DNA of 64,000 nt from Methanomassiliicoccaceae archaeon (GCA_963728405.1 CAVSJV010000005.1:64001-128000), one strand, 5' to 3'. Counted from the first letter of the stretch, positions 881 through 24,748 are shown. Notes: generated from the letters alone by a model not told the origin. Numbers and translations are program-made.

Positions 881-2005
881 ATGTTGACCGCGGCAGAGGT
901 CAAGAGGCTGGGTCGTCAGGCCGGCTTCGATATCGTTCGTATCGCCACCGCTGGCCCTTTTCCTGAGCATATGGCCGCGGTAGCTGAGAGGAAGGCCAAG
1001 GGCTGGGTCCCCCTGGAGATGGAGAGGGGGTATGGGGCGATATCCGATCCGAAGCGCTCTTCCGACCCCCGCTGCCTGATGCCGGAAGCAGGCTCGATCA
1101 TCTCCCTCGGTCTGGGATACTACCTGCGAGGTGAGGCTGACCGGTCCTCGCCGGGGCAACCCTGCGGACGGCTACCAAGGAACGGGTGGCGGGACCTCTC
1201 CGGCGAGGCGGGCCGCCGCCGGGACAAATTCGTTCAATATCTGGAGGAGCATGGCGCCCGGTGTGCTCCGGCGCCGGACCTTCCGTCCAAGAAGGCAGCA
1301 GAACGGGCGGGCGTGGCCGGCTATGCCAAGAGCGGCATCGTCCACGCTGAGATATATGGGCCATGGGTCCATCTGGTGACAGTGGTCACCGATGTTGTGC
1401 TGGAGGCGGACAGCCCCATCGAGATCAATTGCGGCAGCTGCCGGAGATGCGTCGATGCCTGCCCCACCAAGGCCATCCGGGCCCCGTTCGTCCTGGACGC
1501 CAGCAGGTGCCTGGCCCATATGCTGGCTTCCCGGGATTGGTTACCCGTCGAGCTAAGGTCGGCGGTCGGCAATCGGATCTATTCCTGCGATCAATGCCTG
1601 GAAGTATGTCCTCGAGCCCTCAATCCCATGATGGTCGATGCCCCTTCCCCCGACCGACTGGGGCGGTGGACCAATTCTCCGGAGCTATTGCCGCTGCTGA
1701 AGATCGGCGACGAGGAGTTCCGTCAACGGTTCTCTTACCTGGACTGGTATTTGGCCGATCCCATACTGCTCAAGCGGAACACCATCATCGCCCTGGGCAA
1801 TTCCGGGGACCTCGTGGCCGTACCTGCCCTCATCGGCATGCTGGAGAGCGACGAACCGATTCTAAGGGGTCATGCCGCCTGGAGCCTGGGACGCCTGGGA
1901 AGTGCTGATGCCAAGGCTGCATTGGGGGCACGGTTGAAAAAGGAAGAGGATGGCCAGGTAAGGGGAGAGATCGAGCTTGCCCTCAACGATACTGGACGAC
2001 CCTAG
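881..2005 (+). CDS. Epoxyqueuosine reductase QueG-like cobalamin/2x[4Fe-4S] protein with C-terminal HEAT repeats
   Basis: CGSCRRCVDACPTKAI, RC, IYSCDQCLEVCP, LKRNTIIALGN, RGHAAWSLG. ATG 881 follows a TATA-like TATATA at about 850. Confidence 0.75.
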   Translation: MLTAAEVKRLGRQAGFDIVRIATAGPFPEHMAAVAERKAKGWVPLEMERGYGAISDPKRSSDPRCLMPEAGSIISLGLGYYLRGEADRSSPGQPCGRLPRNGWRDLSGEAGRRRDKFVQYLEEHGARCAPAPDLPSKKAAERAGVAGYAKSGIVHAEIYGPWVHLVTVVTDVVLEADSPIEINCGSCRRCVDACPTKAIRAPFVLDASRCLAHMLASRDWLPVELRSAVGNRIYSCDQCLEVCPRALNPMMVDAPSPDRLGRWTNSPELLPLLKIGDEEFRQRFSYLDWYLADPILLKRNTIIALGNSGDLVAVPALIGMLESDEPILRGHAAWSLGRLGSADAKAALGARLKKEEDGQVRGEIELALNDTGRP

Positions 2006-2778
2006 TCCCTCAGAAAGTCGTCGCAGTACAACTTCTCATTGAGGAGCACCTGCCCGGCCTTCACGATGCTCATCAGCTCCTCGTCCTCGGGATCGCAGAT
2101 GGCGGCGGAGAGCCCGGCGCCCATGAGCATCGCGAGGTAGGTGCGGTTGAGCAGGCTGCGCTGCTTGGTGCCGTTGGACACATTGCTCAGGCCGACCACT
2201 GTGCGGGGCGTGGGATCGTTCAGTCCCTGGAATAGATGAACGGCCTGCACCACCTTCCGGCCCTGGTCCTGGGCCGCGCTGGTCGGGAGCACCAGGGGAT
2301 CGAGGTATAGCCGGTCGGGCATGATATCGTATTCCATGGCCTTGGTCATCATCAGCATGGCCATCTCCGCGCGGGCGTCGGCCGAGTTGGGGATGCCCCT
2401 CTCATCCATGCATAGGCAGATGATCTCGGCATCGTGCTCCTGGCAGAGGGGGAAGAACTTTTCCATTCGCTTTTCCTCGGCGGTGGTGGAGTTCATGATG
2501 ACCCGGTTCTTGGCCACCCGGAGGCCCGCCTCCATCGTCTTCGGTCCGGAAGTATCGATGGACAGGGGAACAGACGCCACTTCCTGCACCGTGGACACCA
2601 GCCACTCCATGGCCGCCGGTCCGTCCTCTCTCCCCGGACCGACATTGACGTCCAGGGCCTGAGCCCCACACTCCAACTGCTTCACGGCGAGGTCCTGGAT
2701 GAACTTGGCGTCCCGCTGGTCGATCGCCCTTCCCACTGAGGTGAACAGGCCGTTGATCCGCTCGGAGATGACTAGCAT
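2002..2778 (-). CDS. acsE: Methyltetrahydrofolate:corrinoid iron-sulfur protein methyltransferase (pterin-binding TIM barrel)
   Basis: ISERING, LDVNVG, PLSIDT, IMNST, LYLDPLVLP, VGLSNVSNG, RSLLNRTYL motifs. Confidence 0.88.
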   Translation of the reverse strand: MLVISERINGLFTSVGRAIDQRDAKFIQDLAVKQLECGAQALDVNVGPGREDGPAAMEWLVSTVQEVASVPLSIDTSGPKTMEAGLRVAKNRVIMNSTTAEEKRMEKFFPLCQEHDAEIICLCMDERGIPNSADARAEMAMLMMTKAMEYDIMPDRLYLDPLVLPTSAAQDQGRKVVQAVHLFQGLNDPTPRTVVGLSNVSNGTKQRSLLNRTYLAMLMGAGLSAAICDPEDEELMSIVKAGQVLLNEKLYCDDFLRD

Positions 2779-2929
2779 GGTAGTTCCAAGCGTTGAGTGC
2801 GGCCACCGCATAAAAGCCTTTCCTGGCCACCCTCCTGCCGCCTATAAAATCGCAGTTCTGCTGAAGATACGCTGCAGCTGAACCCAAAGCTAATATGTCG
2901 GGGACAGGATGGAAACGTCGGAGATCTGA

Positions 2930-10086: not shown

Positions 10087-10119
10087 CCTTTAAATAACGA
10101 GAGGGGGTTTTTGACCACT

Positions 10120-11987
10120 ATGGGTCGTAAGGTGGCGTTCTTCCCGGGAAGCATCGTGGCCGAGGTCCAGGACGGCGAGACGATTCTGGACGCAGCGGTG
10201 CAGGCCGGCGTCCAGGTCAACAGCGTGTGCGGTGGGAAGGGCACCTGCGGCAAGTGTCTGGTCATCGTCGACGGGGTCGCGGACAGCGAGATCGGTCAAC
10301 TTTCTCCCGAGGAGTTCAAGCTCGGTTACCGGCTTGCCTGTCAGACCTGGGTAAGAGGGGACCTGTCGGTGTTCATACCGGAGGGTTCCCAGGTCAGCGA
10401 GCACCAGATACTGGCATCCTACCAAGGACGGGCGATAGAGGAGCTCTCGCCCCTGACCGAAAGCCGCAGGCTGGACCTGGCGGCCCCTACGATGGACGAT
10501 AATCAGGGAGACCTGGAACGGGTCACCTGCGCGCTGGACATGCCCGGACTTATGGTCCCGCTGGCCCTCCTACGCCAGCTACCAAACCTCCTCCGCGAGG
10601 GAGGCTGGCAACTAAGTGTCATGGTAGCAAGGGAGGATGGCGGTCGCCGGCTGATGATGCTGGAGAAAGGCTCCAAGAGCCTCCCCAACTACGGGATCGC
10701 GATCGACATCGGCACCACCACGGTGGTCGCCGAGCTGGTCGATCTCAGTACCGGTAGGACGCTGGCCCAAGCGTCCGATTACAATCGCCAGCTGGTGTGC
10801 GGTGAGGATGTCCTGTCGAGGATCGCCTATGCCGAGGAGAAGGGGCTGGAGCGTTTGACCGAACTGGTGACCGACACCGTCAACGGCCTCATCACCCAGC
10901 TCTGCGCGGAACGGGACAAGCGCCGGCGCTACCACTCCGGCATCTGCGGCAATGACATCGCTTCGATCGCCATCGGGGGCAATACTACCATGGTGCACAT
11001 GTTCCTGGGCCTGGACCCCAAGAACATTCGCTACGCTCCGTACATCCCAGTGACCAACGTACCGCCCGTTCTGAGGGCGTCGGAGGTCGGATTGCGAGCG
11101 CATCCTGATGCCCCGGTGTACTGCGTTCCCGGGCGGGCGTCGTGACGTGGGCGGCGACATCACCGCCGACATCCTGCTGTCCGGCCTGCACCTGCGCGAT
11201 GAGCTGTGCATGCTCATCGATGTGGGCACCAACGGCGAGGTGGTCCTGGGCAACAAGGACTGGATTATCGGCTGCTCGACCTCCGCCGGTCCGGCCTTTG
11301 AGGGCGGCGAGGTCTCGTGTGGCATGCGTGCCATGGGCGGAGCGATCGATTCGGTGAGCATTGGTGACTATGAGATCAGCATCACCACCATCGGCCAGGC
11401 CAAGCCCCGAGGGATCTGCGGTTCTGGCCTGATCGATCTCATAGCTCAGATGTTCGAACGCGGGTACCTCGACAAGAAGGGACGGATCAACGCCGCCTCG
11501 TCCGAACATGTGCGGGCATCGGGCCGGGGCATGGAGTTCATCATACACCAGGAGGCAGGGAAGAAGGACCTCACCGTCACCGATGATGACATTGCCAACA
11601 TCATTCGGACCAAGGCGGCCATCTACGCTGGGTGTTCGGTCCTGCTGCAGAGCGTGGACCAAAAATTCACTGACCTGGACCGGGTGTTCATCGCCGGAGG
11701 CTTCGGCAACTATGTCAACATAGACAACGCCCGGACCATCGGCCTGCTCCCGGACCTACCCAAGGAGAAATTCGAGTTCCTCGGGAACGCGTCGCTGGGA
11801 GGAACGAAGCTTTGCCTTCTGTCGGGGAAGATGCGCCAGGAGGCCGAGGCGGTGTACCGAGCGATGACCTATCTGGACCTCTCTTCCTCGCAGATCTTCT
11901 TCGATCAGTACTCCTCGGCACTATTCCTCCCCCACACCGACCTGGATCAATTCCCCAACAGTCAGGACGAGGATGGGCTCCAGATAA
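10120..11987 (+). CDS. Reductive activator of corrinoid proteins (RACo/AcsV; 2Fe-2S plus ASKHA ATPase, DUF4445), frameshifted
   Basis: CGGKGTCGKC..RLACQ, IDIGTTT, GEDVLSRI, GNTTM, IDVGTNGE, SAGPAFEG, GICGSG, IAGGFG, LFLPHTD. 1-nt insertion at about 11143 (TCG TGAC GTG for S-Y-V). A probable second shift near 11955 gives a stop at 11987. Confidence 0.92.
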
Positions 11988-12189
11988 GTGGGGACGAGGC
12001 CCTGGCCCAGCAGGCGGAGATCATGGGGGTGGTCGTTCCGCCTGCTGACCGATCGAGCTAACAATCGCCTGATTACTTTGACGGCTGGAGGTCCTCAAGT
12101 GATTCTAATAATAATCAGTCCAGTACAAAAATACTAATATTTACTCTAAGTTCGAACGTTTTAACCTTAACCAGTGTTTAGACCTCAGG

Positions 12190-12877
12190 GTGAATATCAT
12201 TTCCGATCACGATTTTCCTATGAACGCCATTATCGACATGGCTCGAATAATATCGACCTCTGGGCAGGTAGGCAAGAAGGAATCGAAGACCGAGGCCGAG
12301 AGCCTGGTGAACGGTCTCATCGGAACAGCGGACCACGAATTCTCCCGCCGGTTCGGGTCCAACTATTGGAACCACCTCAAGGCCCTGCTCAACGACTACG
12401 TCATGTCGAGGGGGCTGGGGGACGGGTTCGTGGTGAAGGGCTCCCCGTTCCACTGGCACAACGCCATCGGGACGAAGTGCTCAGCGGTCATCCTGAGAAA
12501 GAACTTCTTCCGAGGGGATGCGCACGTCGAACCGGAGCTTTTCCTGGACTGTGGGTCTGCTGGCCGGCGCGAACGGGACCCTGGTCCCAGGGGTCAGTTG
12601 TGGCTTCCACTATCTGTCATCTATGGAGGGGGACAGGAGCAATTTCATCCAAGGGGTTCTGAAGGACCAGGAACTAAGATCTCTGGCCTGGGCCCTCTCC
12701 AACAACGGCTTCGCCAACCCTTCCCTAAGGTCGAACGATGGTTCATCGTTCTGGAACATGGGTGCCTCATTGGTCAAGGTCTGGGGCGAGGGCGAGATAC
12801 CTAGGGACCTGAAGCAGAAGGTTCACGAGGCCTTCGATGAGCTGTTCCCCCTATATGAGAAGATAATCACACTGTGA
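12190..12877 (+). CDS. Hypothetical protein, possibly McrB-N/DUF3578-like fold (frameshift about 12545)
   Basis: Two overlapping ORFs. VVKGSPFHW and C-terminal AFDELFPLYEKI resemble that family. Confidence 0.45.
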
Positions 12878-12926
12878 TGCCAAAACCATAATTGGTAATG
12901 TGTCGATGAACGGATGAAGGGAGCAG

Positions 12927-13706
12927 ATGAGCGACGACAGGGAGAGGGCCCGGCCTGAGGATGTGTTCTCTCAACGGGCGGAGTTCTACGCCCAGAGCAA
13001 GATACACGATGACAAGGAGACGCTCTCCTGGCTGGTGGAGCTGGCCATGCCCCGGAAGGACATGATCGCCCTGGACGTGGGAACGGGAACAGGCCACACC
13101 GCCATGGCCTTGGCCCCTCACTTGAAGGAGGTGGACGCCATCGATCTTACCGAGGCGATGATGGTCGAGGGCCGGAAGCTGTGCGCCCAGAGGGGAATCG
13201 TCAACGTCCACTTCATGCTCGGTGACGCTATGCGCATCCCCTTTCCGAATGAACATTTCAACATCGTCACCTGCCGCCGGGCCGCCCACCATTTCGGGGA
13301 CATCAAAAAGGCGCTCGTCGAGATGGCCCGGGTGCTAAGACCCGGAGGTCGAATGGTCATCGACGACCGGAGCATACCAGAGGATGACGAGCTCGACACA
13401 ACGATCAACCGGCTGGATGCGCTCCATGATCCCTCACATGTCCGTGACTATCGACCGTCAGAATGGATGCAGTTCTCGAGGATCGCGGGTCTGGAGATCG
13501 AGGCGATGAGGATGTACCGCAAGCATATTCCCCTTACCCATTTCACCGACAAGGTCACGCCGGCGACGGCGAAGGAGATGAAGCAGGTGGCCGAAGAAAT
13601 GTCCGAACGAGCTAAGAAGGTCGTCAATTATGAAATGGCCGATGGTAATATCGTCATGGACAACTTCTTCAGCATCCTGGTGGCAGGGAAGAGATCGGTG
13701 AACTGA
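12927..13706 (+). CDS. Class I SAM-dependent methyltransferase (UbiE-like)
   Basis: ALDVGTGTGH, GDAMRIPF, RRAAHHF, RVLRPGG, DPSHVR. Confidence 0.9.
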   Translation: MSDDRERARPEDVFSQRAEFYAQSKIHDDKETLSWLVELAMPRKDMIALDVGTGTGHTAMALAPHLKEVDAIDLTEAMMVEGRKLCAQRGIVNVHFMLGDAMRIPFPNEHFNIVTCRRAAHHFGDIKKALVEMARVLRPGGRMVIDDRSIPEDDELDTTINRLDALHDPSHVRDYRPSEWMQFSRIAGLEIEAMRMYRKHIPLTHFTDKVTPATAKEMKQVAEEMSERAKKVVNYEMADGNIVMDNFFSILVAGKRSVN

Positions 13707-13830
13707 GCTTTCACGACCGCATATGGGCCGTTGGTAAACAACAGCTCACTAGCTCTCAGGCACTCATCCTTAACCTGCCGGGCTGCTCTCATCGCACAAT
13801 GTTTATAATATATCATAATGTTCGGCAAGT

Positions 13831-14853
13831 GTGGCCTGGAACTGCGCGCCCAGCTGCATAGGTTCGTTACCGCACACCGACCCAGCCAGGGCAGTGGACT
13901 TCGTACTAGATAAGCTCAAGATTATTCCCTTCTGGCCCCAGCTGCCCCGGACGGGGTTCCGGGAGAACATGTACATACAGTTCGCACACTATCTGCCCGG
14001 GGTGAAGGTGGATGAGGTCAAGAAGAGAGTGCATGTGGACCTCACCAACTACGATCCGGAGGACATCTACACCAAGATCCTGGCGGACGATGTCGATGCG
14101 TTCTCACTTCCCAAGGAGAACTTCTCAGGCTTTTACGAGTTCATGTCCCGGGAGATGCCATCCACCGTCCAGGCGGTCAAGGGACAGATCACTGGTCCCG
14201 TATCCCTCGGTCTCCAGATGACCGATCAGGACGACAAGCCGATTATCTATGACGAGGCCTATTCGGAGATCGTCCGTAAGAACCTCAATCTTATGGCCCG
14301 TTGGCAGGAGCGAGAGCTGCGCAAGAAATGCCCACAGACCATCATGTTCATTGACGAGCCTTACCTCTCGATCATCGGCACGCCGTTCGCCTCGGTATCC
14401 CAAGCGGACGTGATCAAGTGGATCGACGAGGTCACCTTCGGGCTGGAAGGTAAGAAGGGCATACACTGCTGTGCCAACACCGACTGGCCGTTCGTCATGA
14501 GCATGGACATCGATGTACTCTCGTTCGACGCGTATGATTACGGTTACACGATCGCCCTTTATCCCGCTGAGGTGGAAAAGTTTCTGAAGAAGGGCGGTTG
14601 CCTAGCCTGGGGGATCGTTCCCAACAATGAAGAGACGGTAAGGAAGGAGAATGCCTCCTCGATGGTCAAGCACGTCGAGAAGCTCTTCCATTCCCTGGAG
14701 GAGAAGGGCATCGAGCAGGAACTGCTGCTGAAACAATCCATCTTCACGCCCCAATGCGGCCTCAGCGGTCTGGACGAGACGGCTAGTGCCAACGCCATGG
14801 ACCTCCTATTGGGCATCTCGAAAGAACTAAGGACGCGCCACTCGCTGGTATAG
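13831..14853 (+). CDS. Folate-independent core methionine synthase (MesB-like, MetE catalytic-domain-only)
   Basis: IGSLPH, IPFWPQLP, KGQITGP, FIDEP, GIHCC (HxC Zn ligands), SFDAY, AWGIVP, TPQCGL. Adjacent to the CoFeSP genes. Confidence 0.8.
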   Translation: MAWNCAPSCIGSLPHTDPARAVDFVLDKLKIIPFWPQLPRTGFRENMYIQFAHYLPGVKVDEVKKRVHVDLTNYDPEDIYTKILADDVDAFSLPKENFSGFYEFMSREMPSTVQAVKGQITGPVSLGLQMTDQDDKPIIYDEAYSEIVRKNLNLMARWQERELRKKCPQTIMFIDEPYLSIIGTPFASVSQADVIKWIDEVTFGLEGKKGIHCCANTDWPFVMSMDIDVLSFDAYDYGYTIALYPAEVEKFLKKGGCLAWGIVPNNEETVRKENASSMVKHVEKLFHSLEEKGIEQELLLKQSIFTPQCGLSGLDETASANAMDLLLGISKELRTRHSLV

Positions 14854-14856
14854 GCC

Positions 14857-15612
14857 GTGACGTACATAGTGGCCGTGGCGGGCAAGGGCGGTGTTGGGAA
14901 GAGCACTATCTCCGCCCTGATGGTCCGCGAGCTGGCCCGTAGGTCTGGAAAGATCGTCCTGGCGGTGGATGCCGATCCCAACTCTAACCTGGGCGATAAG
15001 CTGGGCGTGAAGGTGGAGAGGACCATCGGCGACCTGCGGGAGGACCTGTTGAAACGCTCGGACGAGATCGCCGCGGGCGGCTCCAAGCACGAGGCGGTCA
15101 TCTACCAGCTTCGCCTGGCCATGGTCGAAGGGAAGGACTTCGACCTAGTGACCATGGGGCGGTCGGAGGGACGCGGCTGCTACTGTTACATCAATAATCT
15201 GCTGCGGACCTTCCTGGACGAGGTCATGGACGACTACCCATATGTGGTCATCGACAACGAGGCAGGGATGGAGCATCTGTCCAGAAGAACATGCCAGCGC
15301 ATGGACGTGCTGCTGGTGGTATCGGACGCCACGAAGGTGGGGCTGGACACCGCCGGCCGCATTCTGGCGCTGGCCAAGGAGATGGAACTCGAGGTGGGCT
15401 CCTTCGTTCTGGCGATTAATCGGACCAGGCCTATTGGCTCAGATCAATTAGGAACGATCATTCCGGACGGTTTCCACCAGGTCGTCCTATTGCCTGTTGA
15501 TGAAGAGGTCGAGAGGTTCGCCGTCCAAGGGCGTCCGCTCACACAACTGGAGACAGGGAGCGACCTGGCCCAGGCGGTGCGGGGAATGGTCCAGGGATTC
15601 GTCAGGACCTGA
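14857..15612 (+). CDS. cooC: CooC/AcsF-type nickel-insertion ATPase
   Basis: GKGGVGKS, VDADPNSNL, MGRSEGRGCYC, IDNEAGMEHLSR. Confidence 0.9.
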   Translation: MTYIVAVAGKGGVGKSTISALMVRELARRSGKIVLAVDADPNSNLGDKLGVKVERTIGDLREDLLKRSDEIAAGGSKHEAVIYQLRLAMVEGKDFDLVTMGRSEGRGCYCYINNLLRTFLDEVMDDYPYVVIDNEAGMEHLSRRTCQRMDVLLVVSDATKVGLDTAGRILALAKEMELEVGSFVLAINRTRPIGSDQLGTIIPDGFHQVVLLPVDEEVERFAVQGRPLTQLETGSDLAQAVRGMVQGFVRT

Positions 15613-15651
15613 CCCACCGTGATCACCGGGGAACGGCTGGCGGATCTCGGC

Positions 15652-16974
15652 TCACAGCGTCTTGAGCAGCTTCGGTATGCCCGACGATTCCCTGGGGCCC
15701 ACGACGACCTTCAGGCCGGTCAGCTCTTGGAGCTTGCCGGACATGCGAGAGAGCATCCCCGGGATGATCACGATACCGCGTTTGCTCTTCTCCAGCGCCC
15801 CGCTGGAGCGTAGCGCCTCCGCGACGCTGTCGGCGGTCATCTTACCGGCGGCGAACGCGGTCATGACCGATAGCCCCTCGGTATCGACAACCAGTAGCCA
15901 GGCGGGGACCTTCGACTTCTCGATGTCCGCGGCCACGGTGAAATAGGTCAGCGAGAAGTTGGTGGTGAACAGCACCGGAGCGTCCGCCCCAGGGTTATTG
16001 ATGGGGTACAGGCCCGACTTCACCTGGATAGGTACCTGCGGATCGGTGTAGATGTTCTGGCGGAGCACGAACAGCGGTATGGCCTGGGCCGGGTCCAGAT
16101 CATCCAACAGCACGATGCTGCCGTACTTCATGGTCGACACCAGCGCGGTGAGCATCACTTGCGCGTTCCCGCAGGTGTTGGTGATTATCGGGTACCCTAA
16201 TCCGCGGAAGGTCTTCTTGACCGCGTTCTTGCGGACGATGGTGTTCCTTTCCACCGTCTGCTGCAGGCCGGAGGGCATGAGGTCCAATACAATGTCCTCG
16301 ACGCCGGCGGCCTTCACTTTCTCCACCAGGTCGGCGAGGCCGTTGAGATCGTCATGCCTCACCGCCAGCGGGTATCTCAACTCCTTGGCCGCCGCGGCCA
16401 TTTGCTCGATATTTGAAGCGGTGGCGGCGTAGATGAGCGGCCGGTTAAGGCTGCCCCCGGATGCAGCGGCCCTGATCGTCGCTGCGTTATCGGTCATAAG
16501 CACCAGAGGCAGACGGGAAGCGTGCGATACCTTCGCCACCATCGACGCGAACTTCGCCGGGTCCTTTGAATCGTTGCGCACCCCCAGCAGGTCCAGCGCT
16601 AGGGTCTGGCCGACCCGCTCGAACCGAAGCTCTTCGGCCTTCCGGAGCTTGGAGGCGACCTCCTGCTCATTGGCGGTATCGGAGATGACCAGGGCGTACC
16701 GGGTCGGATGGAAGAACTTCTTCTCATGGCGGTACAGCTCGGTCTCGTCCCCCAGCTCTATCTTGGCCTCGCCGCTGCCGATGGTGACCAGCCTTATGGG
16801 CGGGGCGGAGGAAGCCTCCAGCTTAGCCTTGGCCTCGTCCGTCACGTACGGGCAGTCGGCCAGCTTGGCCTTCTGATTGGCGAGCTGCATGGCGAAGGCC
16901 AGGCAGGTGGGGAAGTTGCACTTCCCGCAGTTCTTCTTCGGAAGGAACTTGAAGATCTCGATGGCCGTCGGCAT
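15652..16974 (-). CDS. acsC: Corrinoid iron-sulfur protein large (gamma) subunit
   Basis: LPKKNCGKCNFPTCLAFA..CP, YRHEKKF, RQNIYTDPQVP, TTNFSLTYF, GLSVMTAFAAGK, VGPRESS. Confidence 0.95.
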   Translation of the reverse strand: MPTAIEIFKFLPKKNCGKCNFPTCLAFAMQLANQKAKLADCPYVTDEAKAKLEASSAPPIRLVTIGSGEAKIELGDETELYRHEKKFFHPTRYALVISDTANEQEVASKLRKAEELRFERVGQTLALDLLGVRNDSKDPAKFASMVAKVSHASRLPLVLMTDNAATIRAAASGGSLNRPLIYAATASNIEQMAAAAKELRYPLAVRHDDLNGLADLVEKVKAAGVEDIVLDLMPSGLQQTVERNTIVRKNAVKKTFRGLGYPIITNTCGNAQVMLTALVSTMKYGSIVLLDDLDPAQAIPLFVLRQNIYTDPQVPIQVKSGLYPINNPGADAPVLFTTNFSLTYFTVAADIEKSKVPAWLLVVDTEGLSVMTAFAAGKMTADSVAEALRSSGALEKSKRGIVIIPGMLSRMSGKLQELTGLKVVVGPRESSGIPKLLKTL

Positions 16975-17925
16975 TTACTTACCTCCGCGCAGTTCGGTGA
17001 TGGCGCCCTGAAGTATCGCTGCCGAACGCGGGCTGCGGACGATGAGGATGTCTGCGCCGGACATCAACGCGGCCAGTCCGGTCGTCGCTTCCCACCAGGT
17101 TCCCCGGTCCTCGACCTCTCCCCAATGGGAATTCTCTTCAGTAGCCTCGCGCGCCTCCCAGGACAGAGTGACATCGCATAGCATCGGCGCCTGGAGCATG
17201 CGGTCGCCCATCAGGGCGGCGATACGGATCCTCTCGTTCACCGAGTAGGAGTACTCGAGGCCCATGCCCAGCCCGGCCATCAAAGGGTCCATGAGCACAT
17301 TGTCGAGCTTCACGCCGAAATCGGCCAGCAAGATGTTCATTTGCTTGGCTAGATTGATGTCCAGGTTGGAGAACGCGATGAGAGCGTGACGGTTCGACAT
17401 CGTCGCGGCGGAGATGGTCTTGTAGGCCTGTTCCTCGGCCTGTCCGAGCAGAACGCGCTCCTTGGCGCAGGCGTTGCTCACGGCCTCCATGGTCCTAGCA
17501 TCCTTCTCCTCGTGTCCGCAACCGTAGACGATCACCGGGACCTTGACCGTGGCCAATAGCTTCAGCACGGTCTGGGCCGCTTCCTCTGCAGGGGCATCCT
17601 TGCCCTCGGGATTAGTGGACTGGAGCTTCAGGCAAACGAGGTCCGCCTTGAAATCCACGACCCACCGCCGAGCCCACTCGGCCGGATCCTTTACGGAATC
17701 GCCGAAGGAACGGACCGCCAGCTCGGTCAGATTGTCCGTGACATCGATAACCTCGCCGGCCAGGAGCTGGCGGTTTCCCAGTCCCTCGTACGACAGGAAG
17801 GGCATGCCCGCCTCTCCGCCGACCAGGACCGGGGAGCGACTCCCGCCCTCAGCCGGGGACGCGCCTAGCGTCACGGTGCCAATCTTTCCTGACCACTTCT
17901 CCTTGGGGACCGGTACTTCGACCAT
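16975..17925 (-). CDS. acsD: Corrinoid iron-sulfur protein small (delta) subunit
   Basis: GGEAGMPF, DPAEWA, DINLAKQMN, MDP..LGMGLEYSYS..ERIRIAALMGD, GADILIVR. Confidence 0.93.
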   Translation of the reverse strand: MVEVPVPKEKWSGKIGTVTLGASPAEGGSRSPVLVGGEAGMPFLSYEGLGNRQLLAGEVIDVTDNLTELAVRSFGDSVKDPAEWARRWVVDFKADLVCLKLQSTNPEGKDAPAEEAAQTVLKLLATVKVPVIVYGCGHEEKDARTMEAVSNACAKERVLLGQAEEQAYKTISAATMSNRHALIAFSNLDINLAKQMNILLADFGVKLDNVLMDPLMAGLGMGLEYSYSVNERIRIAALMGDRMLQAPMLCDVTLSWEAREATEENSHWGEVEDRGTWWEATTGLAALMSGADILIVRSPRSAAILQGAITELRGGK

Positions 17926-17930
17926 AGGGA

Positions 17931-20115
17931 TCACTCTACGACAGCAGAGGCGGCATCTTCATGAGCGGGGTGATCGACCTTTACCATCCACTCCACGAGG
18001 CCATCGGCCTCGGTGGTGACGGTCTCGTCGGCGATCTTGTCCACGAAGTTCGGCTCTCCGAGCTCCTCGGCCCTCCGCTGCAATGAGGAGCGCATCGCTT
18101 CCTTTAGCTCTTTGGGCATCCACGCTATGCGCAGGAACCCGCCATCAGCGGGGATGAACTTCCGACTGGTAATATACTTTCTTCCCACACCGATGAACCC
18201 GGGGGTCTGCTTGCCGCCGCCCACCGAGCCGGCCAGGGTGGAGAACTTCATGCCGATGGGGGTCATGCCCGGATACTCCCGGTTCACAATGATGACGGCC
18301 TGCATGTCGGCGGTCATTCCGACGATAACCTCGAAGCACCCGCAGGAGGTCATGGGGTCCTCCATCATGGTGTAGGCGTTGAACCGCTCGAGCTTGTGGT
18401 GAGTACCTTCGAAAACGGCCTCGTTGACGCCCTGCCATTGGCCCTTGACCTCATCGATGCACTTCCCCTTGATAATGCTCTGGTTAGGTCCATGGGGGTC
18501 GATTTCGTACGAGGCCCGGGCATCTAACCAGTTCACTGCTCCGCACAGTCCCAGGCGCTCGGGGGTTATTACGCAGATGTGATCTGGTGCAAAAGACTGA
18601 CAGAGTAAACAACTATACGCCGTGTCCACACTCTCGTCCGTCAGACCGGCCAGGCGGGCATCGCGCTGCGTATAGATGTCCAACGCTTCCGGTAACCGTT
18701 TTCTGATCTCCTCCTCGTCGGTTATGATGGTGACCTGGACGCGGGAGACGATGTTGCCGAACTCCTCCTTGAGCTTGGTGATGATGATGTCCCCTAAGTG
18801 CTTGAACCGGAGACCAGCATGAACGGACGCTTTGCTCAACCGGATCCACAGGATGTTCCTCTGGCCGGTATGCCACGCTCCCTCGGCGTAGTTGACGAAG
18901 AGGTGGATCCTTCGCTCCAGCACTCCTTCGAAGTCCTCCTGCATCTTCTTGCCGTAGACGTCCACCAGGATTGCGAGGGAGGTCTTCCCTCCTTCCGGGA
19001 GCGAGTCCACGTCCTTGCCGATAACGGTGATGAGGCCGTCCTTGACCTCGTCCTCGGGCCGAAGCCTTAGTAGCTCGAAAGTGGTGGTCTTGGCCGCGCC
19101 ACCCGCCTCGACATAGGTGTCCGGACGGCGGATGACCTCGCCTTCGAAAGCGGGGCCATAGGCCACCGGTATGTCGACCGGAGCGAGGCGGACCTTGATA
19201 CCCCGGGCCTCCAGGCCGATCTGGACCATCTTTTCCGGTTCCTTGACGTAGATGAGCTTCTCCGGTACGCCCTCTACCGGCTGGTCGGTAATGATCGATG
19301 CACCGTTGAGGATCGCGGCCAGCGCCGCGCCCGCCAGAACCGGATCGATCGGTCCGAACGCCAGGACGAGCACCTTGGGCCTCTTGGCCAGGTAGGCGGC
19401 GATGCCTTCGCGATCGCCCCTCTGCACGCCGCCGAACGATAGCGCTGCGCGAATGGCAAAGTTCAACGCATGAACGATCTGGGTAGACATTCCGACCGGG
19501 TACAGGCGGAACCTTTCCCCCATCTGCACGCCCTTGGAACGCAACTGCTCGATGACCTCGCCGGAGGCGATGATCAGCAGCCCCTTCGCTTGCAGGTCCC
19601 GGACGATCTTGACCAGCGCCTCCGGATCGTTGCTCTTTCCGGCAAGAACGGCCGCCCCAGGGATGGTATCGTCGACAAACGCGACGCCCAGCTCACGGAT
19701 CACCTTGTCGGGCACGAAGCCCATGAAGTCCGTCCCCTCATAGGGGCGCTGGTTCTCCACGTACTTCAACGCCTCGATGACCTCGGCTGGCGATCATGGT
19801 CGCCTCGCCGGCGATCAACGCGTTCCCTATGGTCGGCTCGCTACCCAGCTTCTCACGCTGGGTGCGCAATATCGGGCCGAGCTGTCCGAGGCTCCTGGCC
19901 TCCCGGCCGTCCCAGGCAAAGATCGCCGGCAGCTCGTAGCAAGTCTCCGGGTACTCCACCGCTCGGTCGGCTCCGAGTCGGGACAGCGCATCCTGTAATG
20001 CCTCATCGGCCAGGTCCAGGGCGATATTGGCGCCTTGTATGGCCAGTGCGAACACATCTTGGTTGGAGATGGTATGGTCGGAACTCAAATGGAACGCCTC
20101 CCGGGCACGGGTCAA
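17931..20115 (-). CDS. acsB: Bacterial-type acetyl-CoA synthase with N-terminal domain (frameshifts about 19780 and near the 3' end)
   Basis: YPETCYELP, GEATMIA/EALKY, PVAYGPAFEGE, LERRIH, HTGQR, YSCLLCQSFAP..C..PERLGLCG, PMTSCGCFE (A-cluster), GGGKQTPGF. Confidence 0.95.
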
Positions 20116-20262
20116 AGGGATATAACCTCATCACTTTAGAGATTATTAACCCAATGTGCTTCTTGCTAGCTGGGGGCCATGAATATTGCCACTAGCCTGA
20201 TTTCCAGTGCTTGGCGGTACTTCAAAGCTTCGCCTGAGCCGTCGGTCCTGCCAATGCAGGGC

Positions 20263-21222
20263 CTAGAGCGCGATCGTCTGCAGGTCGTCAACGAAATACT
20301 TGCCCTTCTGCAGCGCCAGCACATCTTCTAACGACGACCGCAGCTTCTCGGTGTCCAGGTCGCACTTGCTGACGTCGGCGATGATGTCCAGGGTCATGGA
20401 CTCATAGAACACCAGGACCTCGCTCTGTAGCGAGACGATGTTCACATCGTGCTTGGCCAGTATGTCGGCGACGCGGCTTATGGCTCCGGGCTTGTCGGGG
20501 ATGACCAGCGATGCGCGCACCAGTTTGGCCTTCGCGTCCATGAGGGTGATGGACAGCACATAGGAATCCATGTCACCGACCATCATCAGTGGCTGCCCGT
20601 CTTTGACCTCCTTCAGCTCGGCCAGGAACTCTTCCGGTACCTCGAACTCACCGTTGCTGATGAGCGTCGGGACCTTGTGCTTGCGCTTGATGAGCTTGGT
20701 CTTGACGGTCCGGGAATCGGCGGCCGCGCCCTTGTTGTAGCGGTCGGCGATATGGGAGATCTGGATGTCCATGATATCCACCATATCGACCAGCGAGGAC
20801 CTCGACTTCTTCAGCGCATCGAACTCGGCCTTCAGCTCGGCTGGCTCACCGTAGTAGGAGAGATCCGCTAGCATCTTCCAGGTCATGGAGACCCCCGATA
20901 TGGTGCTCAGCGAGACGGAGTTCAGGATGTCGACGTTCCGCTCAGCTAGGAACTTCGAGGCCTGAGCGCACGCCCCGGGCTTGTCGATCATGTGGATGGT
21001 GAGCTGGCACAGCTGCCGGTAGTTTTCCGGTCCGAAGGTAGAGAGCACGAGCTCGTACGAGGACATGTCATTGTAATCGTACCGGAACATGGTGCTGAAG
21101 ACCTGGCTTCCATTGACCAGTCCCAGAGCCTGCCCTAGCTCCTCATTGATCTCGATCTTATTCCCGCGCAACCTTCCAAACTGCCAGAGCCTCATTTCAT
21201 GACCCCGAACGCCAAACATCAT
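20263..21222 (-). CDS. Tandem (AbrB-like plus ACT) x2 putative ligand-responsive regulator
   Basis: Two ACT motifs, DKPGACAQASKFLAERNVDI and DKPGAISRVADILAKHDVNI. Each is preceded by an AbrB-like segment (GNKIEINEELGQALGLVNG; GEFEVPEEFLAELKEVKDG). Confidence 0.7.
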   Translation of the reverse strand: MMFGVRGHEMRLWQFGRLRGNKIEINEELGQALGLVNGSQVFSTMFRYDYNDMSSYELVLSTFGPENYRQLCQLTIHMIDKPGACAQASKFLAERNVDILNSVSLSTISGVSMTWKMLADLSYYGEPAELKAEFDALKKSRSSLVDMVDIMDIQISHIADRYNKGAAADSRTVKTKLIKRKHKVPTLISNGEFEVPEEFLAELKEVKDGQPLMMVGDMDSYVLSITLMDAKAKLVRASLVIPDKPGAISRVADILAKHDVNIVSLQSEVLVFYESMTLDIIADVSKCDLDTEKLRSSLEDVLALQKGKYFVDDLQTIAL

Positions 21223-21345
21223 TAACCCTGATAAAGATTGGCAATGGCCGAAGGGCTCTGAACAGGACTCATGAATAGATTGGTGATAAATTCACAAATA
21301 TCGAAGCTAAATACAAATTTTCATTACATTTCGTGGGCAAGAAAG

Positions 21346-21363
21346 CCACAATCTCGATTGTGG
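21346..21363. promoter_or_regulatory. Inverted repeat in divergent intergenic region
   Basis: CCACAATC-tc-GATTGTGG perfect 8-bp arms. Confidence 0.35.
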
Positions 21364-21513
21364 GATGTAATCGCGACAATAGTAGTTTCAGAGACCCATC
21401 GGTAACACGTTTATAATCTCGAATCGTCAGAGTTCTGCTGCTTCTGACCTTCAGGATCAAGCACGGCCGAGATTACATGCCGAACTAGCGAAGGAGGGGT
21501 CGCCGAGTTCGCC

Positions 21514-21835
21514 TTGCAGACAGCAGCCTTACCTCTAGGATGTGAAGGCCATTGGCCTGCCGCGGTGATCGCGGCGGTGATCGGAATAGTGACCCTGGCC
21601 CTAGGCTATGGTGCCTTGCAAGGGTGGGGATGGGTATGGACCCTGACCATGGTGGTCATGGTCATTTTGGTCATCATAGGGGCGCTGAACCTACTGGGGG
21701 TCGCTTTTGGAGCATCAGGGGGGGGTGGCGGGCATCGGCGGGATACTGATCCCCCTGATCATCTTGCTCTACATGAACACTAGGGGGGTGCGCACCTGGT
21801 TCGGCAAGGTCAAGGCTCTCCCCCGCCGGGCCTAA
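21514..21835 (+). CDS. Small membrane protein (frameshifted, possibly 5'-truncated)
   Basis: Hydrophobic helices IGIVTLALGYGALQGWGWVWTL; ILIPLIILLYMNTRGVRTWFG in a shifted frame. Confidence 0.55.
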
Positions 21836-21937
21836 ATCTTTTCCATACTATCATCCACTGCTCAGTAAAGCATTTTCACGGTTTGCTTCCGAGTAAGGAT
21901 CTCCATATTTTGGCGGATTTGATCATTTTATGAGAAA

Positions 21938-21957
21938 TTATATAGTAGCTAGCTACT
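21938..21957 (+). promoter_or_regulatory. TATA box abutting a perfect 14-bp palindrome (probable PadR operator)
   Basis: TTATATA then AGTAGCTAGCTACT (21944-21957) upstream of padR. Confidence 0.55.
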
Positions 21958-22011
21958 TAGGTAGGCCGGAACCTAGTAGCTCCCTTCCTAGGGAGTTGCC
22001 TGGAGAAGGAA

Positions 22012-22545
22012 ATGTTCGGAAAAGGTCATGAGTATAAGGGCTGCCGGGTCAGCCCCATGCAGCTAACGATCCTGATCCTCCTGCGGGACCGGCCGATGTA
22101 CGGATACGAGGTCCTAAAGGAGCTGAGGGACCACTTCGAAGGCGTTTGGAACCCTCAGACCGGATCGATATATCCTGCTCTCAAGAGATTGGAGGAACAC
22201 GGGCTGGTCATCTCAGAAAAGCGGGAGGGGACCGATTATTATCGCATCTCCGATGAAGGGAGGGCCTGGGTAGTAGAGAGGCTGACCCACTCGCCCAAGG
22301 ACATCCGCCTTTTGACCCGCTACCTGGAGATGCTCGACAAGGCTGCCGCCGACCTTCATATCATTGGCGAAGGGGGACCGCAGCCAGGTCATTTCTCCGA
22401 GATGTTCGAGGAGGATAGCTGCGATCGATCCAGAAGGGCGAAGAAGCTAAGGGAGGCGCGGGAGCGCATAGCCCATCATCTCGCCAACATTGACCTGGAG
22501 CTCAGCGAGATCGACAGGGACAACAAGGGAGGGAATCGAACATGA
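22012..22545 (+). CDS. PadR family transcriptional regulator
   Basis: RPMYGYEV, GSIYPALKRLEEHGLV, YYRISDEG. Confidence 0.92.
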   Translation: MFGKGHEYKGCRVSPMQLTILILLRDRPMYGYEVLKELRDHFEGVWNPQTGSIYPALKRLEEHGLVISEKREGTDYYRISDEGRAWVVERLTHSPKDIRLLTRYLEMLDKAAADLHIIGEGGPQPGHFSEMFEEDSCDRSRRAKKLREARERIAHHLANIDLELSEIDRDNKGGNRT

Positions 22546-23541
22546 CTGCGATTGTGGAAGTGGAGAACCTGACCAAGCGGTTCAGCGAGGAGCGTGCTGG
22601 CCGTGGACGGGATATCCTTCACGGTTAACGAAGGCGAGATCTTTGGGTTCCTGGGCCCCAACGGGGCGGGAAAGTCGACGACCATCAATATGTTGACCAC
22701 GCTGCTCCGGCCGACCGGGGGGAAGGCGCTGGTGGCCGGTCTGAACATAGCGACCCAGCAGGATGATGTGCGCAAGGTCATCGGTCTGGTCCCTCAGGAC
22801 CTCACCGTGGACGATGAGCTGTCTGGCTGGGAGAACATGTACCTGCAGGCCGACCTGTACAACGTACCGAAGGACGAGGCCAAGCGGGACATCGAGGACC
22901 TTATTCATGTCGTGAACCTGGAGGACGCCGCTGACCGCCGCGTTAAGACCTATTCTGGCGGAATGAGGAAGAGGCTGGAACTGGCCGAAGGACTGATCCA
23001 CCATCCCCGCATCCTGTTCCTGGACGAGCCGACCCTGGGTCTCGACATCCAGACCAGGGCGGCCATCTGGGAGTACATCAAGGACCTCAAGGCCAAGCAC
23101 AACATCACCGTGTTCCTGACGACCCACTATCTGGAGGAAGCTGACGGCCTATGCGATCGCATCGGCATCATCGACCATGGCAAGATCGTCGCGCTCGATA
23201 CCCCGGCCACGCTCAAGCGGTCGGTGGGCGGGGACGTCATCGAGCTGAAGGTGGAGAGCGCCATGGACCTCACCGATCCTATCAAGAACGTCGAGGGCAT
23301 CCTGGACGTCAAGAAGGAGAACGACACCTATCGCATCAAGGCCTTAAAAGGCGAGGCGGCGATCCCGAAGGTGCTGCTGGCGGTCACCAATAACGGTGGC
23401 ACGGTGTCCAATGTATCACTGCACCGGCCCAGCCTGGACCAGGCCTTCCTGGAGTACACCGGACGGTCATTACGGGATGCTGAATCGAGCGGCGGGTTCG
23501 ATCGCATGGCCGCTTCCCGCGCCTCAAGAAGGAGGCGGTAA
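22542..23541 (+). CDS. ABC-2 type exporter ATP-binding protein (DrrA-like; 5' frameshift)
   Basis: GPNGAGKST, YSGGMRKR, LFLDEPT, LTTHY. ATG at 22542 overlaps the padR stop. Confidence 0.92.
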
Positions 23542-23545
23542 GGTG

Positions 23546-24376
23546 ATGCACGAGACGTGGGCCTTGACCGTGAGAGAGCTGAAACACTGGTATAGGGTCA
23601 AGATCCAGATCTTCATGACCCTCATCCAGCCGATCGTCTGGCTGGGGCTGTTCGGTCAAGCGTTCAACCTCGGCGCGGTGTTCGCCGGCCCAGGCGTACC
23701 GGCGGGAGCGTTCCAACAGGCGTTCGCCGGTGCACCGGACTACTTCTCGTTCATGTCGGTCGGCATGCTCGCGGTGATAACGCTGTTCGCTTGCATGTTC
23801 TCCGGCATGAGCATCGTGTGGGACCGGCGGTTCGGATTCCTGAACAAGCTCAAGGTGGCGCCCATACCGAGGGGCGTGGTGCCGGTATCGAGGATACTTG
23901 CTACGGTCGTCCGGGCCATGATACAGGTGGCCATCGTGCTGATCATCGCTGCAGCGTTCGTCTATGTCCCCGGCCTCACCGGCCTTAGCGTGAAGGCGAG
24001 CTTCAGCCTGTTCGACCTGGGCGGGATGTTCCTCATCCTGTTCCTGCTGTCCCTGGGCTTCGCATCGCTGTTCACCGCGATCGCGCTGGCCGTGGAGAAC
24101 CAGGAGACCCTGTTCGGCGTGATCAACCTGCTGAACCTGCCCCTGATGTTCGCCTCCGCGGCGCTGTTCCCGTTGTTCTTAATGCCTGGTTGGCTCCAAA
24201 GCATCGCCAAGTACAACCCCCTCACCTGGGCTGCGGACGGCCTGCGGCAGTTCGCGTTCGTGGACACCAGCGCCGTTTACAGCGTGGAGTGGGACATAAT
24301 CGGGCTGGCGATCTTCTCCCTGGCCCTGGTAGGGATCAGCATCGTTGTATCGAGGAAGCTGCTGAGCAACAAGTGA
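23546..24376 (+). CDS. ABC-2 type exporter permease
   Basis: QPIVWLGLFG, DRRFGFL, PLMFAS, YNPLTWAADGLR; about six TM segments. Confidence 0.9.
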   Translation: MHETWALTVRELKHWYRVKIQIFMTLIQPIVWLGLFGQAFNLGAVFAGPGVPAGAFQQAFAGAPDYFSFMSVGMLAVITLFACMFSGMSIVWDRRFGFLNKLKVAPIPRGVVPVSRILATVVRAMIQVAIVLIIAAAFVYVPGLTGLSVKASFSLFDLGGMFLILFLLSLGFASLFTAIALAVENQETLFGVINLLNLPLMFASAALFPLFLMPGWLQSIAKYNPLTWAADGLRQFAFVDTSAVYSVEWDIIGLAIFSLALVGISIVVSRKLLSNK

Positions 24377-24553
24377 GCACCAAACCCTTTCCATCCCTTT
24401 TTCTAAATAATTTCGATACCTATTTGCGCCCGCTTGCAGATAGTTCGTTCCTATCTGTCCTTAACCAGCAGCTCTCCGACCCGTAGATGGGGATACATCG
24501 CCGCGGAGCACGATGCTTTGATGTAATGGACGTTTTAGCGTTGGAACGGCCGC

Positions 24554-24748
24554 TCAATCCATCTTCTTGAAAACTATCCCGTGGCTAAGGAGGTTCGCTT
24601 CCTTGAGCACGACATTGTCGAGCACGACCTGCTCCCCGACGATATTGGTGCAGATGGCCTGGGGGCCGCGCATGACGATCCTGGTCGCATCCTTCAGGAC
24701 CTCTTTCATCGCGCCGTTCTCTTCCAAGAACACCGTCGACTCACACAT
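24554..24748 (-). CDS. cooT: CooT family nickel-binding protein
   Basis: N-terminal MCES, 64 aa, C-terminal NLLSHGI; near cooC/acsB. Confidence 0.75.
   Translation of the reverse strand: MCESTVFLEENGAMKEVLKDATRIVMRGPQAICTNIVGEQVVLDNVVLKEANLLSHGIVFKKMD

Follow-up and report, generated by a model that had tools for sequence, protein, structure and literature searches.

The acsB-acsD-acsC cluster analysed here is best explained as a one-carbon hub centred on the corrinoid iron-sulfur protein (CoFeSP). Its host is a Methanomassiliicoccus-like methanogen, in which mcrA is present. Taken as a whole, that is, the hub, a stand-alone CooS, a likely cleavage of acetyl-CoA and frameshifts due to assembly errors, we give this explanation a probability of about 70%. 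AcsC and AcsD would form the CoFeSP at the hub, RACo would re-reduce its corrinoid, and the CooC-family ATPase and CooT would mature the nickel sites. A bacterial-type AcsB would interconvert acetyl-CoA and CH3-CoFeSP plus CO, AcsE would carry out the methyl exchange of CoFeSP with methyl-H4F, and MesB is predicted to methylate homocysteine with CH3-CoFeSP as donor. CooS, encoded about 50 kb away, would make or remove CO.

Organization of the cluster and type of AcsB

In the 64-kb window, by which we mean the whole stretch of DNA analysed (64,000 nucleotides), RACo, mesB and the gene of a CooC-like ATPase converge on acsC-acsD-acsB, with cooT downstream (Table 1). All the genes listed in the original prediction, acsE included, were found in the arrangement it described. 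Genes for gamma-carbonic anhydrase and PEP carboxylase adjoin the ACS cluster.

Table 1. Features of the ACS/CoFeSP cluster and its surroundings, with positions in the window
Feature	Position	Strand	Evidence
acsE, methyl-H4F:CoFeSP methyltransferase	2002..2811	-	NF005719 294.3 bits, cut-off 259; Pterin_bind 75 bits
RACo/AcsV, N-terminal part (2Fe-2S, linker, middle)	10111..11145	+	Pfam Fer2, RACo_linker, Raco_middle; NF040756 positions 1-354
RACo/AcsV, C-terminal ASKHA ATPase part	11108..12061	+	PF14574 319 bits; NF040756 positions 356-632
Conserved ORF between RACo and mesB, no family assigned	12190..12804	+	tblastn, same place in G069 (79%) and G057 (50%)
SAM-dependent methyltransferase (class I)	12927..13706	+	Methyltransf_25/11
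MesB-type core (folate-independent) methionine synthase, predicted	13831..14853	+	Residues, fold, homologs
CooC-family Ni-insertion ATPase, AcsF-like by context	14857..15612	+	AAA_31/CbiA
acsC, CoFeSP large subunit	15652..16974	-	NF003195 551.9 bits, cut-off 306; PF04060 and PF03599
acsD, CoFeSP small subunit	16975..17934	-	NF003376 328.4 bits, cut-off 280
acsB, main part (rest of N-terminal domain, middle, A-cluster domain)	17931..19769	-	NF040764 852.6 bits, cut-off 800, positions 92-700 of 705
acsB, N-terminal piece (CODH-contacting helical domain)	19738..20115	-	NF040764 positions 1-86; PF18537 CODH_A_N 61.7 bits
ACT-domain protein	20263..21222	-	PF01842; syntenic, beside acsB in G069 (95%) and G057 (78%)
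PadR regulator and ABC-2 transporter (ATPase, permease)	22012..24376	+	Pfam; syntenic, kept in G069 and G057
cooT-like nickel chaperone	24572..24748	-	PF10133 36.7 bits, cut-off 27

Both CoFeSP subunits scored above their family cut-offs, and the large one carries the Fe-S domain. The CooC-family ATPase gave 67 bits against CooC1 (3kje), is 36% identical to the cooC adjacent to cooS and retains the CxC motif. A copy of cooT with 68% identity lies at the same place in the CODH-less genome G057. The ORF that follows RACo had no match in Pfam or NCBIfam; it shows an isolated one-base gap, and near 12549 a disturbance of the frame is possible. The neighbouring methyltransferase, which is present in G069 and absent from G057, matched the CpaM corrinoid-protein-associated family weakly (NF043040, 50 bits, cut-off 180).

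AcsB scored 695 bits against bacterial ACS structures and 344 bits against Methanosarcina CdhC, and its N-terminal piece contains a domain that is absent from archaeal CdhC. Its A-cluster motif, CxxC...C...C plus CGC, aligns with the solved bacterial ACS 7zkj_B, under what we take to be the numbering of the ligand residues. The bacterial type, the bacterial N-terminal domain and the retained A-cluster cysteines are thus confirmed. The horizontal transfer proposed for the ACS is not recent, since AcsB of the present type occurs in 61 of the 81 genomes of the order.

CODH and the direction of carbon flow

AcsB is neither adjacent to nor fused with its cognate CODH (AcsA) here. A genome-wide search with PF03063 gave one strong match outside the window, one match of 21.5 bits on another contig and none inside the window, in agreement with the original prediction. 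Extended to the genome, the claim that CODH is missing fails: 5.8 kb beyond the window end, the same contig carries a cooT-cooC-cooS operon for a CooS-type CODH (TIGR01702 649 bits, cut-off 478). There, cooS is preceded by cooT and cooC and followed by nikR and a metal ABC transporter. The original prediction had named a catalytic CODH elsewhere partnering AcsB as contrary evidence; the CODH is there, as a possible partner of AcsB.

Sixteen sister genomes encode CODH and AcsB as a single fusion protein of about 1365 aa. The CODH tree separates this fused clade (16 rows) from a stand-alone clade (21 rows, including the present CooS) at support 100, both forms coexist in four sister genomes, and the present CooS shares 36% identity with the fused form from G065. 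By its sequence, it is the stand-alone paralog of the CODH fused to AcsB in those 16 genomes, and for this reason we infer that CO probably diffuses instead of being channelled through a dedicated complex. CooS gave 592 bits with the C. autoethanogenum CODH, which forms a CODH/ACS complex, and 462 with Moorella AcsA, and it could dock on AcsB. Fifteen of the 61 AcsB-bearing genomes, including 3/9 congeners and all four members of genus g2, gave no Ni-CODH match, be it above the cut-off or partial but strong. The AcsB of CODH-less relatives still has a recognisable CODH-contacting domain (81-92 bits), and the closed, CODH-less genome G057 carries the same cluster in synteny.

Fhs (in three pieces), FolD, MetF (as a MetV-MetF fusion), AcsE, CoFeSP, ACS and CODH of the folate-type Wood-Ljungdahl pathway are all present; fhs, folD, hdrA-mvhD-metVF and acsE share the contig of the cluster and would complete the methyl branch. 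The one formate dehydrogenase model searched, TIGR01591, had no match in this 93.75%-complete genome, and a complete CO2-to-acetyl-CoA route would therefore be missing. We think that the likeliest net direction is cleavage of part of the acetyl-CoA to supply methionine and the folate one-carbon pool, with CooS oxidising the CO, because about 84% of cell carbon in cultured M. luminyensis is derived from acetate according to passages of PMC5688252, a figure that applies to that named species.

From the gene content, ACS may also possibly run towards synthesis. Methyl groups from methanol or methylamines would pass through methyl-CoM, MtrAH, methyl-H4F and AcsE to CoFeSP, and AcsB would join them to CO made from CO2 by CooS, with MesB as a side branch. 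All the parts exist (mtrA-mtrH, a pair that stands alone, acsE, CoFeSP, AcsB and CooS), the carbonic anhydrase and PEP carboxylase next to the cluster fit such anabolism, and, for a related genome, Speth and Orphan 2018 put forward a role of MtrAH as methyl-H4F:CoM methyltransferase, as stated in sections of PMC6147122. However, the acetate-derived carbon of M. luminyensis, the 15 genomes that keep the cluster without CODH and a CooS that is not of the AcsB-fused type all speak against it, and the direction of MtrAH is speculative. We regard this anabolic route as possible but unlikely.

Taken literally, the original prediction has the cluster do nothing but tap acetyl-CoA for the methyl group of methionine, with CO emitted as in Dehalococcoides. 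The window and cluster without CODH, a lone candidate methionine synthase and the CODH-less relatives, G057 among them, would fit this idea, which is plausible in spirit. Nevertheless, the intact cooS operon on the same contig makes CO emission not obligatory. As acsE, metF, folD and fhs are present, genes missing from Dehalococcoides according to parts of PMC7005905, acetyl-CoA is not the only possible methyl source, and the Dehalococcoides-like reading is not supported. We consider a tap of this kind and nothing more improbable.

The methionine synthase and the integrity of the genes

The claim that the gene upstream of the CooC-like ATPase encodes a MesB-type core methionine synthase is borne out by its residues and fold, the activity being predicted. 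The assignment further draws on the statement, in passages of Price, Deutschbauer and Arkin 2021 (PMC7857596), that Methanomassiliicoccales "have MesB only", together with the Wood-Ljungdahl pathway. Of the four zinc ligands, H212, C214 and D233 do not vary among 60 diverse homologs, and C309 is at least 90% conserved, as are S12 and D175, which bind homocysteine. All six lie 2-3 positions off those given for D. mccartyi MesB in the same passages (zinc 214/216/235/311; homocysteine 15, 177). The protein has 340 aa and is modelled as a single barrel of the MetE catalytic type without the folate-binding N-terminal half (AF2 pLDDT 96.3); the best Foldseek matches were MetE C-terminal catalytic barrels and the core synthase 3rpd (E about 1e-9). 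Homologs with 52-92% identity belong to named Methanomassiliicoccales. MesB was the sole methionine synthase candidate found in the 93.75%-complete genome, where the MetE/MetH domains PF01717 and PF02574 had no match, and we infer that it is the only methionine synthase of the cell.

Both acsC and acsD lie 1-3 kb from mesB, and in 47 of the 57 genomes having both genes mesB is less than 10 kb from acsB, as read off coordinates. In all four genomes of genus g10 that have MesB without AcsB or CODH, mesB still abuts acsC-acsD, acsE is present, and the CooC-family ATPase is no longer between mesB and acsC. The retention of mesB-acsCD-acsE without AcsB in four genomes indicates that the conserved core is CoFeSP plus MesB. 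Methylotrophic methanogens contain many methyl-corrinoid proteins, and some MesB/MesC paralogs may use corrinoid proteins other than CoFeSP (Price 2021, in part). A methanogenic corrinoid protein of the MtaC, MtmC or MtrA type could thus be the donor, the adjacency being historical, but an adjacency that outlives AcsB and CODH in g10 and recurs in those 47 genomes makes us strongly doubt it.

Relative to congeners G069 and G057, one extra base interrupts the frame of acsB near 19788 and another that of RACo near 11142. These breaks do not appear in the original prediction. Across its two frames RACo keeps four Pfam domains in order (NF040756 223.7 plus 331.8 bits, cut-off 800), the two AcsB parts are 93% and 84% identical to G069, and AcsB is intact in all nine congeners. 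Isolated one-base insertions, all on the side of the present genome, also occur in fhs (twice, giving three pieces), in PEP carboxylase (three), in an acs-like gene (two pieces) and in a pterin-binding gene. Judging from these patterns, assembly errors are the most likely cause. The frameshifts could be real mutations, and a cluster decaying in this strain, with inactive ACS, would agree with their absence from G069 and G057; a CheckM-type completeness of 93.75%, compared with 96-99% in congeners, points the same way. Yet the like insertions in unrelated genes, all on one side, and the high conservation of both halves of each gene leave such decay with little probability.

Comparison with known systems

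The archaeal AcsB resembles the monomeric ACS of Carboxydothermus hydrogenoformans (1ru3) and 7zkj (695 bits over residues 9-602), and it shares domain order and A-cluster motif with bacterial CODH/ACS (Moorella 1oao, C. hydrogenoformans 7zkj). The adjacent acsA of these systems is missing at the archaeal locus, whereas sister archaeal families fuse CODH to AcsB.

Dehalococcoides mccartyi has an incomplete Wood-Ljungdahl pathway with AcsB, AcsCD and core-MetE, releases CO and is without CODH, AcsE and MetF, according to passages of Deobald 2020 (PMC7005905; Zhuang 2014 cited there). Bacterial-type AcsB, CoFeSP, a MesB-type synthase and the lack of CODH beside ACS are common to both, and acetate is a main carbon source in a cultured congener of the archaeon too (PMC5688252, in part). 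In contrast, the archaeal genome has the Ni-CODH CooS, AcsE, MetF, FolD and Fhs. The Methanomassiliicoccales genome MALP belongs to the same order and has the same set of genes, namely ACS, CODH, the folate (C1-THF) pathway and mtrA-mtrH alone. The consulted sections of Speth and Orphan 2018 (PMC6147122) propose a possible aceticlastic or methanol-disproportionating energy metabolism for MALP, whereas in our reading the present cluster serves anabolism, with MesB and CoFeSP at its centre.

Also close is the MesB-CoFeSP system of Price 2021 (PMC7857596), whose passages predict, as opposed to demonstrate, that CoFeSP is the methyl donor of MesB in Methanomassiliicoccales. The HxC...D...C zinc ligands, the presence of acsC and acsD and their clustering with mesB are the same. 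The CODH fusion, the CODH-less genomes and the AcsB-less mesB-acsCD genomes find no mention in the main-text passages of that paper. We found no essential difference from the system described in these passages: the pairing of MesB with ACS/CoFeSP had been predicted in the literature before, and the locus exemplifies that predicted link and is nothing out of the ordinary among loci of this known type.

The acs cluster and its predicted methionine synthase

Family searches located in the window every feature that the original prediction had claimed for the acs cluster, so that this observation is confirmed (see the table). The AcsB is of the bacterial type, as claimed, and keeps both its N-terminal domain (NF040764, PF18537) and its A-cluster cysteine motifs, which align with those of 7zkj_B, a solved bacterial ACS. 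It scores 695 bits against bacterial ACS structures versus 344 bits against Methanosarcina CdhC. The host genome (G000; 2.73 Mb, 18 contigs, 93.75% complete), in which the window spans C5:64001-128000, contains mcrA and a PEP carboxylase of archaeal type. The closest database proteins come from Methanomassiliicoccus sp. for AcsC (80-81% identity) and from Methanomassiliicoccaceae or Methanomassiliicoccales for MesB (52-69% identity). The cluster had been presumed horizontally acquired; a recent transfer is rejected here because, judging by gene content, it occurs across the whole order Methanomassiliicoccales.

Genes of the acs-mesB cluster and its surroundings, with positions in the window
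Feature	Position	Strand	Evidence or remark
acsE	2002-2811	-	294 bits vs cut-off 259
RACo (corrinoid reactivator)	10111-12061	+	upstream of mesB
ORF of no family	12190-12804		between RACo and mesB; same place in G069 and G057, congeners of G000
MesB-like gene, 340 aa	13831-14853	+	acsC-acsD-acsB converge on it and the CooC-family ATPase
CooC-family ATPase	14857-15612	+	
acsC	15652-16974	-	above family cut-off
acsD	16975-17934	-	above family cut-off
acsB, main piece	17931-19769	-	NF040764 852.6 bits (cut-off 800), positions 92-700 of 705
acsB, N-terminal piece	19738-20115	-	NF040764 positions 1-86; PF18537
cooT	24572-24748	-	

Both acsB and RACo are broken into two frames in G000. Compared with the closest relative, G069, each break is a single base added in G000, near 19788 (acsB) and 11142 (RACo), and the RACo insertion is the same against G057. 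Over 15,920 bases aligned to G069, isolated one-base insertions in conserved coding sequence were found at 7208, 7577, 8019, 11142, 12549 and 19788, in every case on the G000 side; those one-base gaps that lie on the G069 side are either intergenic or compensated within a few bases. Other genes of this assembly are similarly affected: PEP carboxylase has three one-base insertions (window 7096-8426), fhs is in three pieces (C5:52342-54017), and an acs-like gene (C17:118787-120455) and a pterin-binding gene (C17:48055-48785) are in two each. In 9/9 congeners AcsB is one full-length match whose open frame measures 722-757 aa. Given these insertions elsewhere and the intact AcsB of all congeners, the acsB and RACo frameshifts are very probably assembly errors. 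With isolated one-base insertions so widespread in the assembly, gene calls on this genome are expected to be fragmented.

Elsewhere in the window, purH, for folate-dependent purine synthesis, and a gamma-carbonic anhydrase gene are neighbours of acsE (3342-4934 and 6030-6578), in surroundings with many C1 and CO2 functions. A TnpB/Cas12f1-like ORF (PF07282, 33044-34018) sits in a low-GC stretch (about 32000-41000; 47-54% GC versus about 59% elsewhere), which is probably an inserted mobile element. At 42731-45481, an N-terminal NAD_binding_4 reductase domain is fused with an AMP-binding adenylation domain in a protein of 916 aa, encoded in a GC-rich (65%) stretch beside a polysaccharide pyruvyl transferase.

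The product of the MesB-like gene has no Pfam match, and its sole NCBIfam match is a methionine synthase model (29.7 bits). Among 1.84 billion representatives searched, 1,932 were related at E up to 0.001. Aligned with 59 diverse relatives (31-52% identity), the protein shares H212, C214 and D233 with all of them, and C309, S12 and D175 reach at least 90% conservation. For MesB of D. mccartyi, passages of Price et al. 2021 (PMC7857596) give zinc ligands 214/216/235/311, homocysteine-binding residues 15/177, and an Asp in place of the Glu of MetE. In a fold search the AF2 model (pLDDT 96.3) hit the catalytic barrels of MetE and the core synthase 3rpd; a PDB sequence search gave spurious PPR-repeat matches only. 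PF01717 and PF02574 have no match in the G000 genome. A predicted complex of MesB with the AcsC B12 domain (residues 305-440) scored 0.00 against a mark of 0.32, which is evidence neither way. On its sequence and model, the protein is filed as MesB, a predicted folate-independent methionine synthase.

CO dehydrogenase in the genome and the order

PF03063 finds no CODH in the window, as had been noticed. Extended to the genome, this reading fails: one strong PF03063 match lies on the same contig (C5:133844-135505), about 50 kb from acsB and 5.8 kb beyond the window end. TIGR01702 (649 bits; cut-off 478) identifies it as a catalytic CODH of the CooS type, with an intact reading frame of 648 aa, preceded by cooT and a CooC gene (160 bits to CooC1) and followed by nikR and a ZnuA-type metal ABC transporter. 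An archaeal CdhA-type CODH elsewhere in the genome is rejected, as the same PF03063 search found none. Two ORFs (C17:108783-109130 and C6:718-1059) resemble the CdhD family in its C-terminal corrinoid-binding part alone and may encode corrinoid proteins, HgcA-like or other.

Upstream of the window, contig C5 carries folD, fhs, DUF3786, hdrA-like genes, mvhD and a metV-metF fusion. At C17:14841-16494, mtrA and mtrH form a pair with no further mtr genes, and a second mtrA-like gene lies at C7:139996; a passage in PMC6147122 describes the same mtrA-mtrH arrangement, without other mtr genes, in the MALP genome of the order. Formate dehydrogenase was not found with TIGR01591 in this 93.75%-complete genome. 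With CooS, the folate genes and mtrA-mtrH at hand and no formate dehydrogenase, G000 is, by gene content, a folate-type Wood-Ljungdahl set minus FDH and not a Dehalococcoides-type remnant. The original interpretation is thus partly supported: the bacterial-type ACS beside a MesB-type synthase stands, and a CODH-less, Dehalococcoides-like reading of the genome does not.

In 16 genomes of other families of the order, the CODH and AcsB matches share one open frame, the CODH part immediately upstream (13 frames complete, 1362-1387 aa). The closed genome G065 (L075:4655-8758) has a 1368-aa frame made of Prismane, CODH_A_N, CdhC and ACS_C, then acsD and acsC, converging on cooC, mesB and RACo, which is the architecture of the G000 cluster plus CODH. 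We built a CODH tree from 41 of the 53 above-cut-off matches; the 12 left out were seven further copies of genus g7, those of G063 and G066, one with in-frame stops and two partials. A branch with support 100 sets the 16 fused copies on one side, and the G000 CooS belongs to a clade of 21 stand-alone copies. Four genomes (G043, G056, G059, G065) have one CODH of each type, and the fused CODH of G065 shares 36% identity with the G000 CooS. These separate clades, the genomes with both types and the low identity identify the G000 CooS, on sequence grounds, as a paralog and not the cluster's own CODH. The open-access literature searched held nothing on a CODH-ACS fusion or a CODH-less ACS in the order, which the supplements of PMC10804542 and PMC7857596 may hold.

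AcsB itself differs between fused and unfused lineages. Identities were compared over the N-terminal 95 residues, the next 190 and the core in 11 non-independent genomes. They are 81-83%, 84-85% and 83% where both proteins are fused, 57-60%, 76-78% and 85-87% between unfused lineages (G000 or G069 versus G057), and 54%, 58% and 82% for G000 versus the fused G010. The low N-terminal identity where AcsB is unfused suggests that, without the fusion, constraint on the CODH-contacting domain has been relaxed or changed. PF18537 is still recognised in unfused AcsB, at 81-92 bits (CODH-less G057 and G023 included) versus 95-104 bits in fused proteins, and this would count against a strong reading of relaxed constraint. 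A different arrangement was seen in G008 (L076:9338-12418) and 10 more g7 genomes, where AcsB lies within an open frame of about 980-1030 aa; its first 340 aa or so show no Pfam match and no similarity to CooS, and could represent a remnant, or else an N-terminal extension that is new.

A CoFeSP-MesB core across Methanomassiliicoccales

We compared 81 genomes of the order, G000 included. AcsB (NF040764) was present at E up to 0.001 in 61, above cut-off in 47, and a MesB-like protein at E up to 1e-20 also in 61. Both occur together in 57 genomes; coordinates place them less than 10 kb apart on one contig in 47 of these and on different contigs in the other 10, with G069 having both at contig ends. 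Among the 61 AcsB genomes, 44 have a CODH match above cut-off, two have a strong partial match (G060, G071), and 15 have only matches of 25-33 bits or none at all. The weak matches (frames of about 430-560 aa) are taken as putative hybrid-cluster-like proteins. Genomes lacking CODH comprise three of nine congeners (G021, G054, G057), all four of genus g2 (G006, G011, G016, G025), and G051, G023, G068, G017, G042, G052, G058 and G064, the last three with divergent AcsB matches below cut-off. Of these 15 assemblies, five consist of 1-2 contigs and 11 have a completeness rating of 99%.

The genus g10 goes further, with AcsB in 0/5, CODH above cut-off in 0/5 and MesB in 4/5 genomes. In all four MesB-bearing genomes (G005, C20:264706-268535; G020; G032; G044) mesB adjoins acsC-acsD and acsE is above cut-off, with one in-frame TGA near its end. 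This looks like a stand-alone methionine synthase module of MesB and CoFeSP, the AcsC/AcsD corrinoid iron-sulfur protein. The mesB-acsC gap here, about 30-630 nt, leaves no room for the cooC-like gene that G000 has at this place, in keeping with an AcsF-like role of the G000 ATPase. Order-wide, then, the gene content indicates that CoFeSP and MesB never separate, that ACS is mostly present, and that CODH is fused, separate or absent. That CoFeSP and MesB are kept together in this way supports, on comparative grounds, a role of CoFeSP as methyl donor to MesB.

Such a donor had been proposed before. Passages of Price et al. 2021 (PMC7857596) report that in some methanogens mesB apparently shares operons with acsC and acsD, and state that "The Methanomassiliicoccales have MesB only", consistent with the prediction of CoFeSP as methyl donor. 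The locus itself is therefore one case of what had already been predicted in print. ACS/CODH, the C1-THF pathway and mtrAH are described for a genome of the order in part of Speth and Orphan 2018 (PMC6147122), and an H4F branch for 243 genomes in part of Xie et al. 2024; nothing on acetyl-CoA, CODH, folate or methionine synthase turned up in Borrel 2014 (PMC4153887). The more interesting lead is a CoFeSP-MesB core that stays constant across the order with CODH fused, separate or absent. This natural strain series (fused CODH, separate CooS, no CODH, no ACS) bears on the origin of the methionine methyl group, the direction of ACS and the release of CO. Methanomassiliicoccales include gut methanogens, so their handling of carbon and CO is of practical interest.

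A possible uncoupling of ACS from CODH and the direction of the pathway

The gene identities are observed, as are their conserved linkage and the occurrence and type of CODH. In the mechanism that we propose, MesB would take the methyl group from CH3-CoFeSP, AcsB and AcsE would load or unload it, and CooS would handle CO without a dedicated complex. As for direction, M. luminyensis draws about 84% of its cell carbon from acetate, according to a passage of Kröninger et al. 2017 (PMC5688252). This share, together with the CODH-less relatives, favours net cleavage of acetyl-CoA as the probable supply of C1 units and methionine. The anabolic direction, in which ACS joins a substrate methyl to CO made by CooS, could draw on the intact cooS of G000; in view of the same acetate share and relatives we consider it less likely, though a serious rival.

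It is tempting to propose that in the family of the window ACS has been uncoupled from its cognate CODH, fused in sister families, and that the cluster persists with only a dispensable stand-alone CooS or with no Ni-CODH. We hold this reading tentatively, at a probability of about 0.35. A state without any Ni-CODH occurs in 15/61 AcsB genomes, closed ones included. If the uncoupling is real, a Dehalococcoides-like methyl tap that cleaves acetyl-CoA and frees CO works in methanogenic archaea, and G000 would represent an intermediate state with CooS scavenging CO. By analogy with MetH, its folate, cobalamin, homocysteine and reactivation modules would be paralleled by AcsE, CoFeSP, MesB and RACo.
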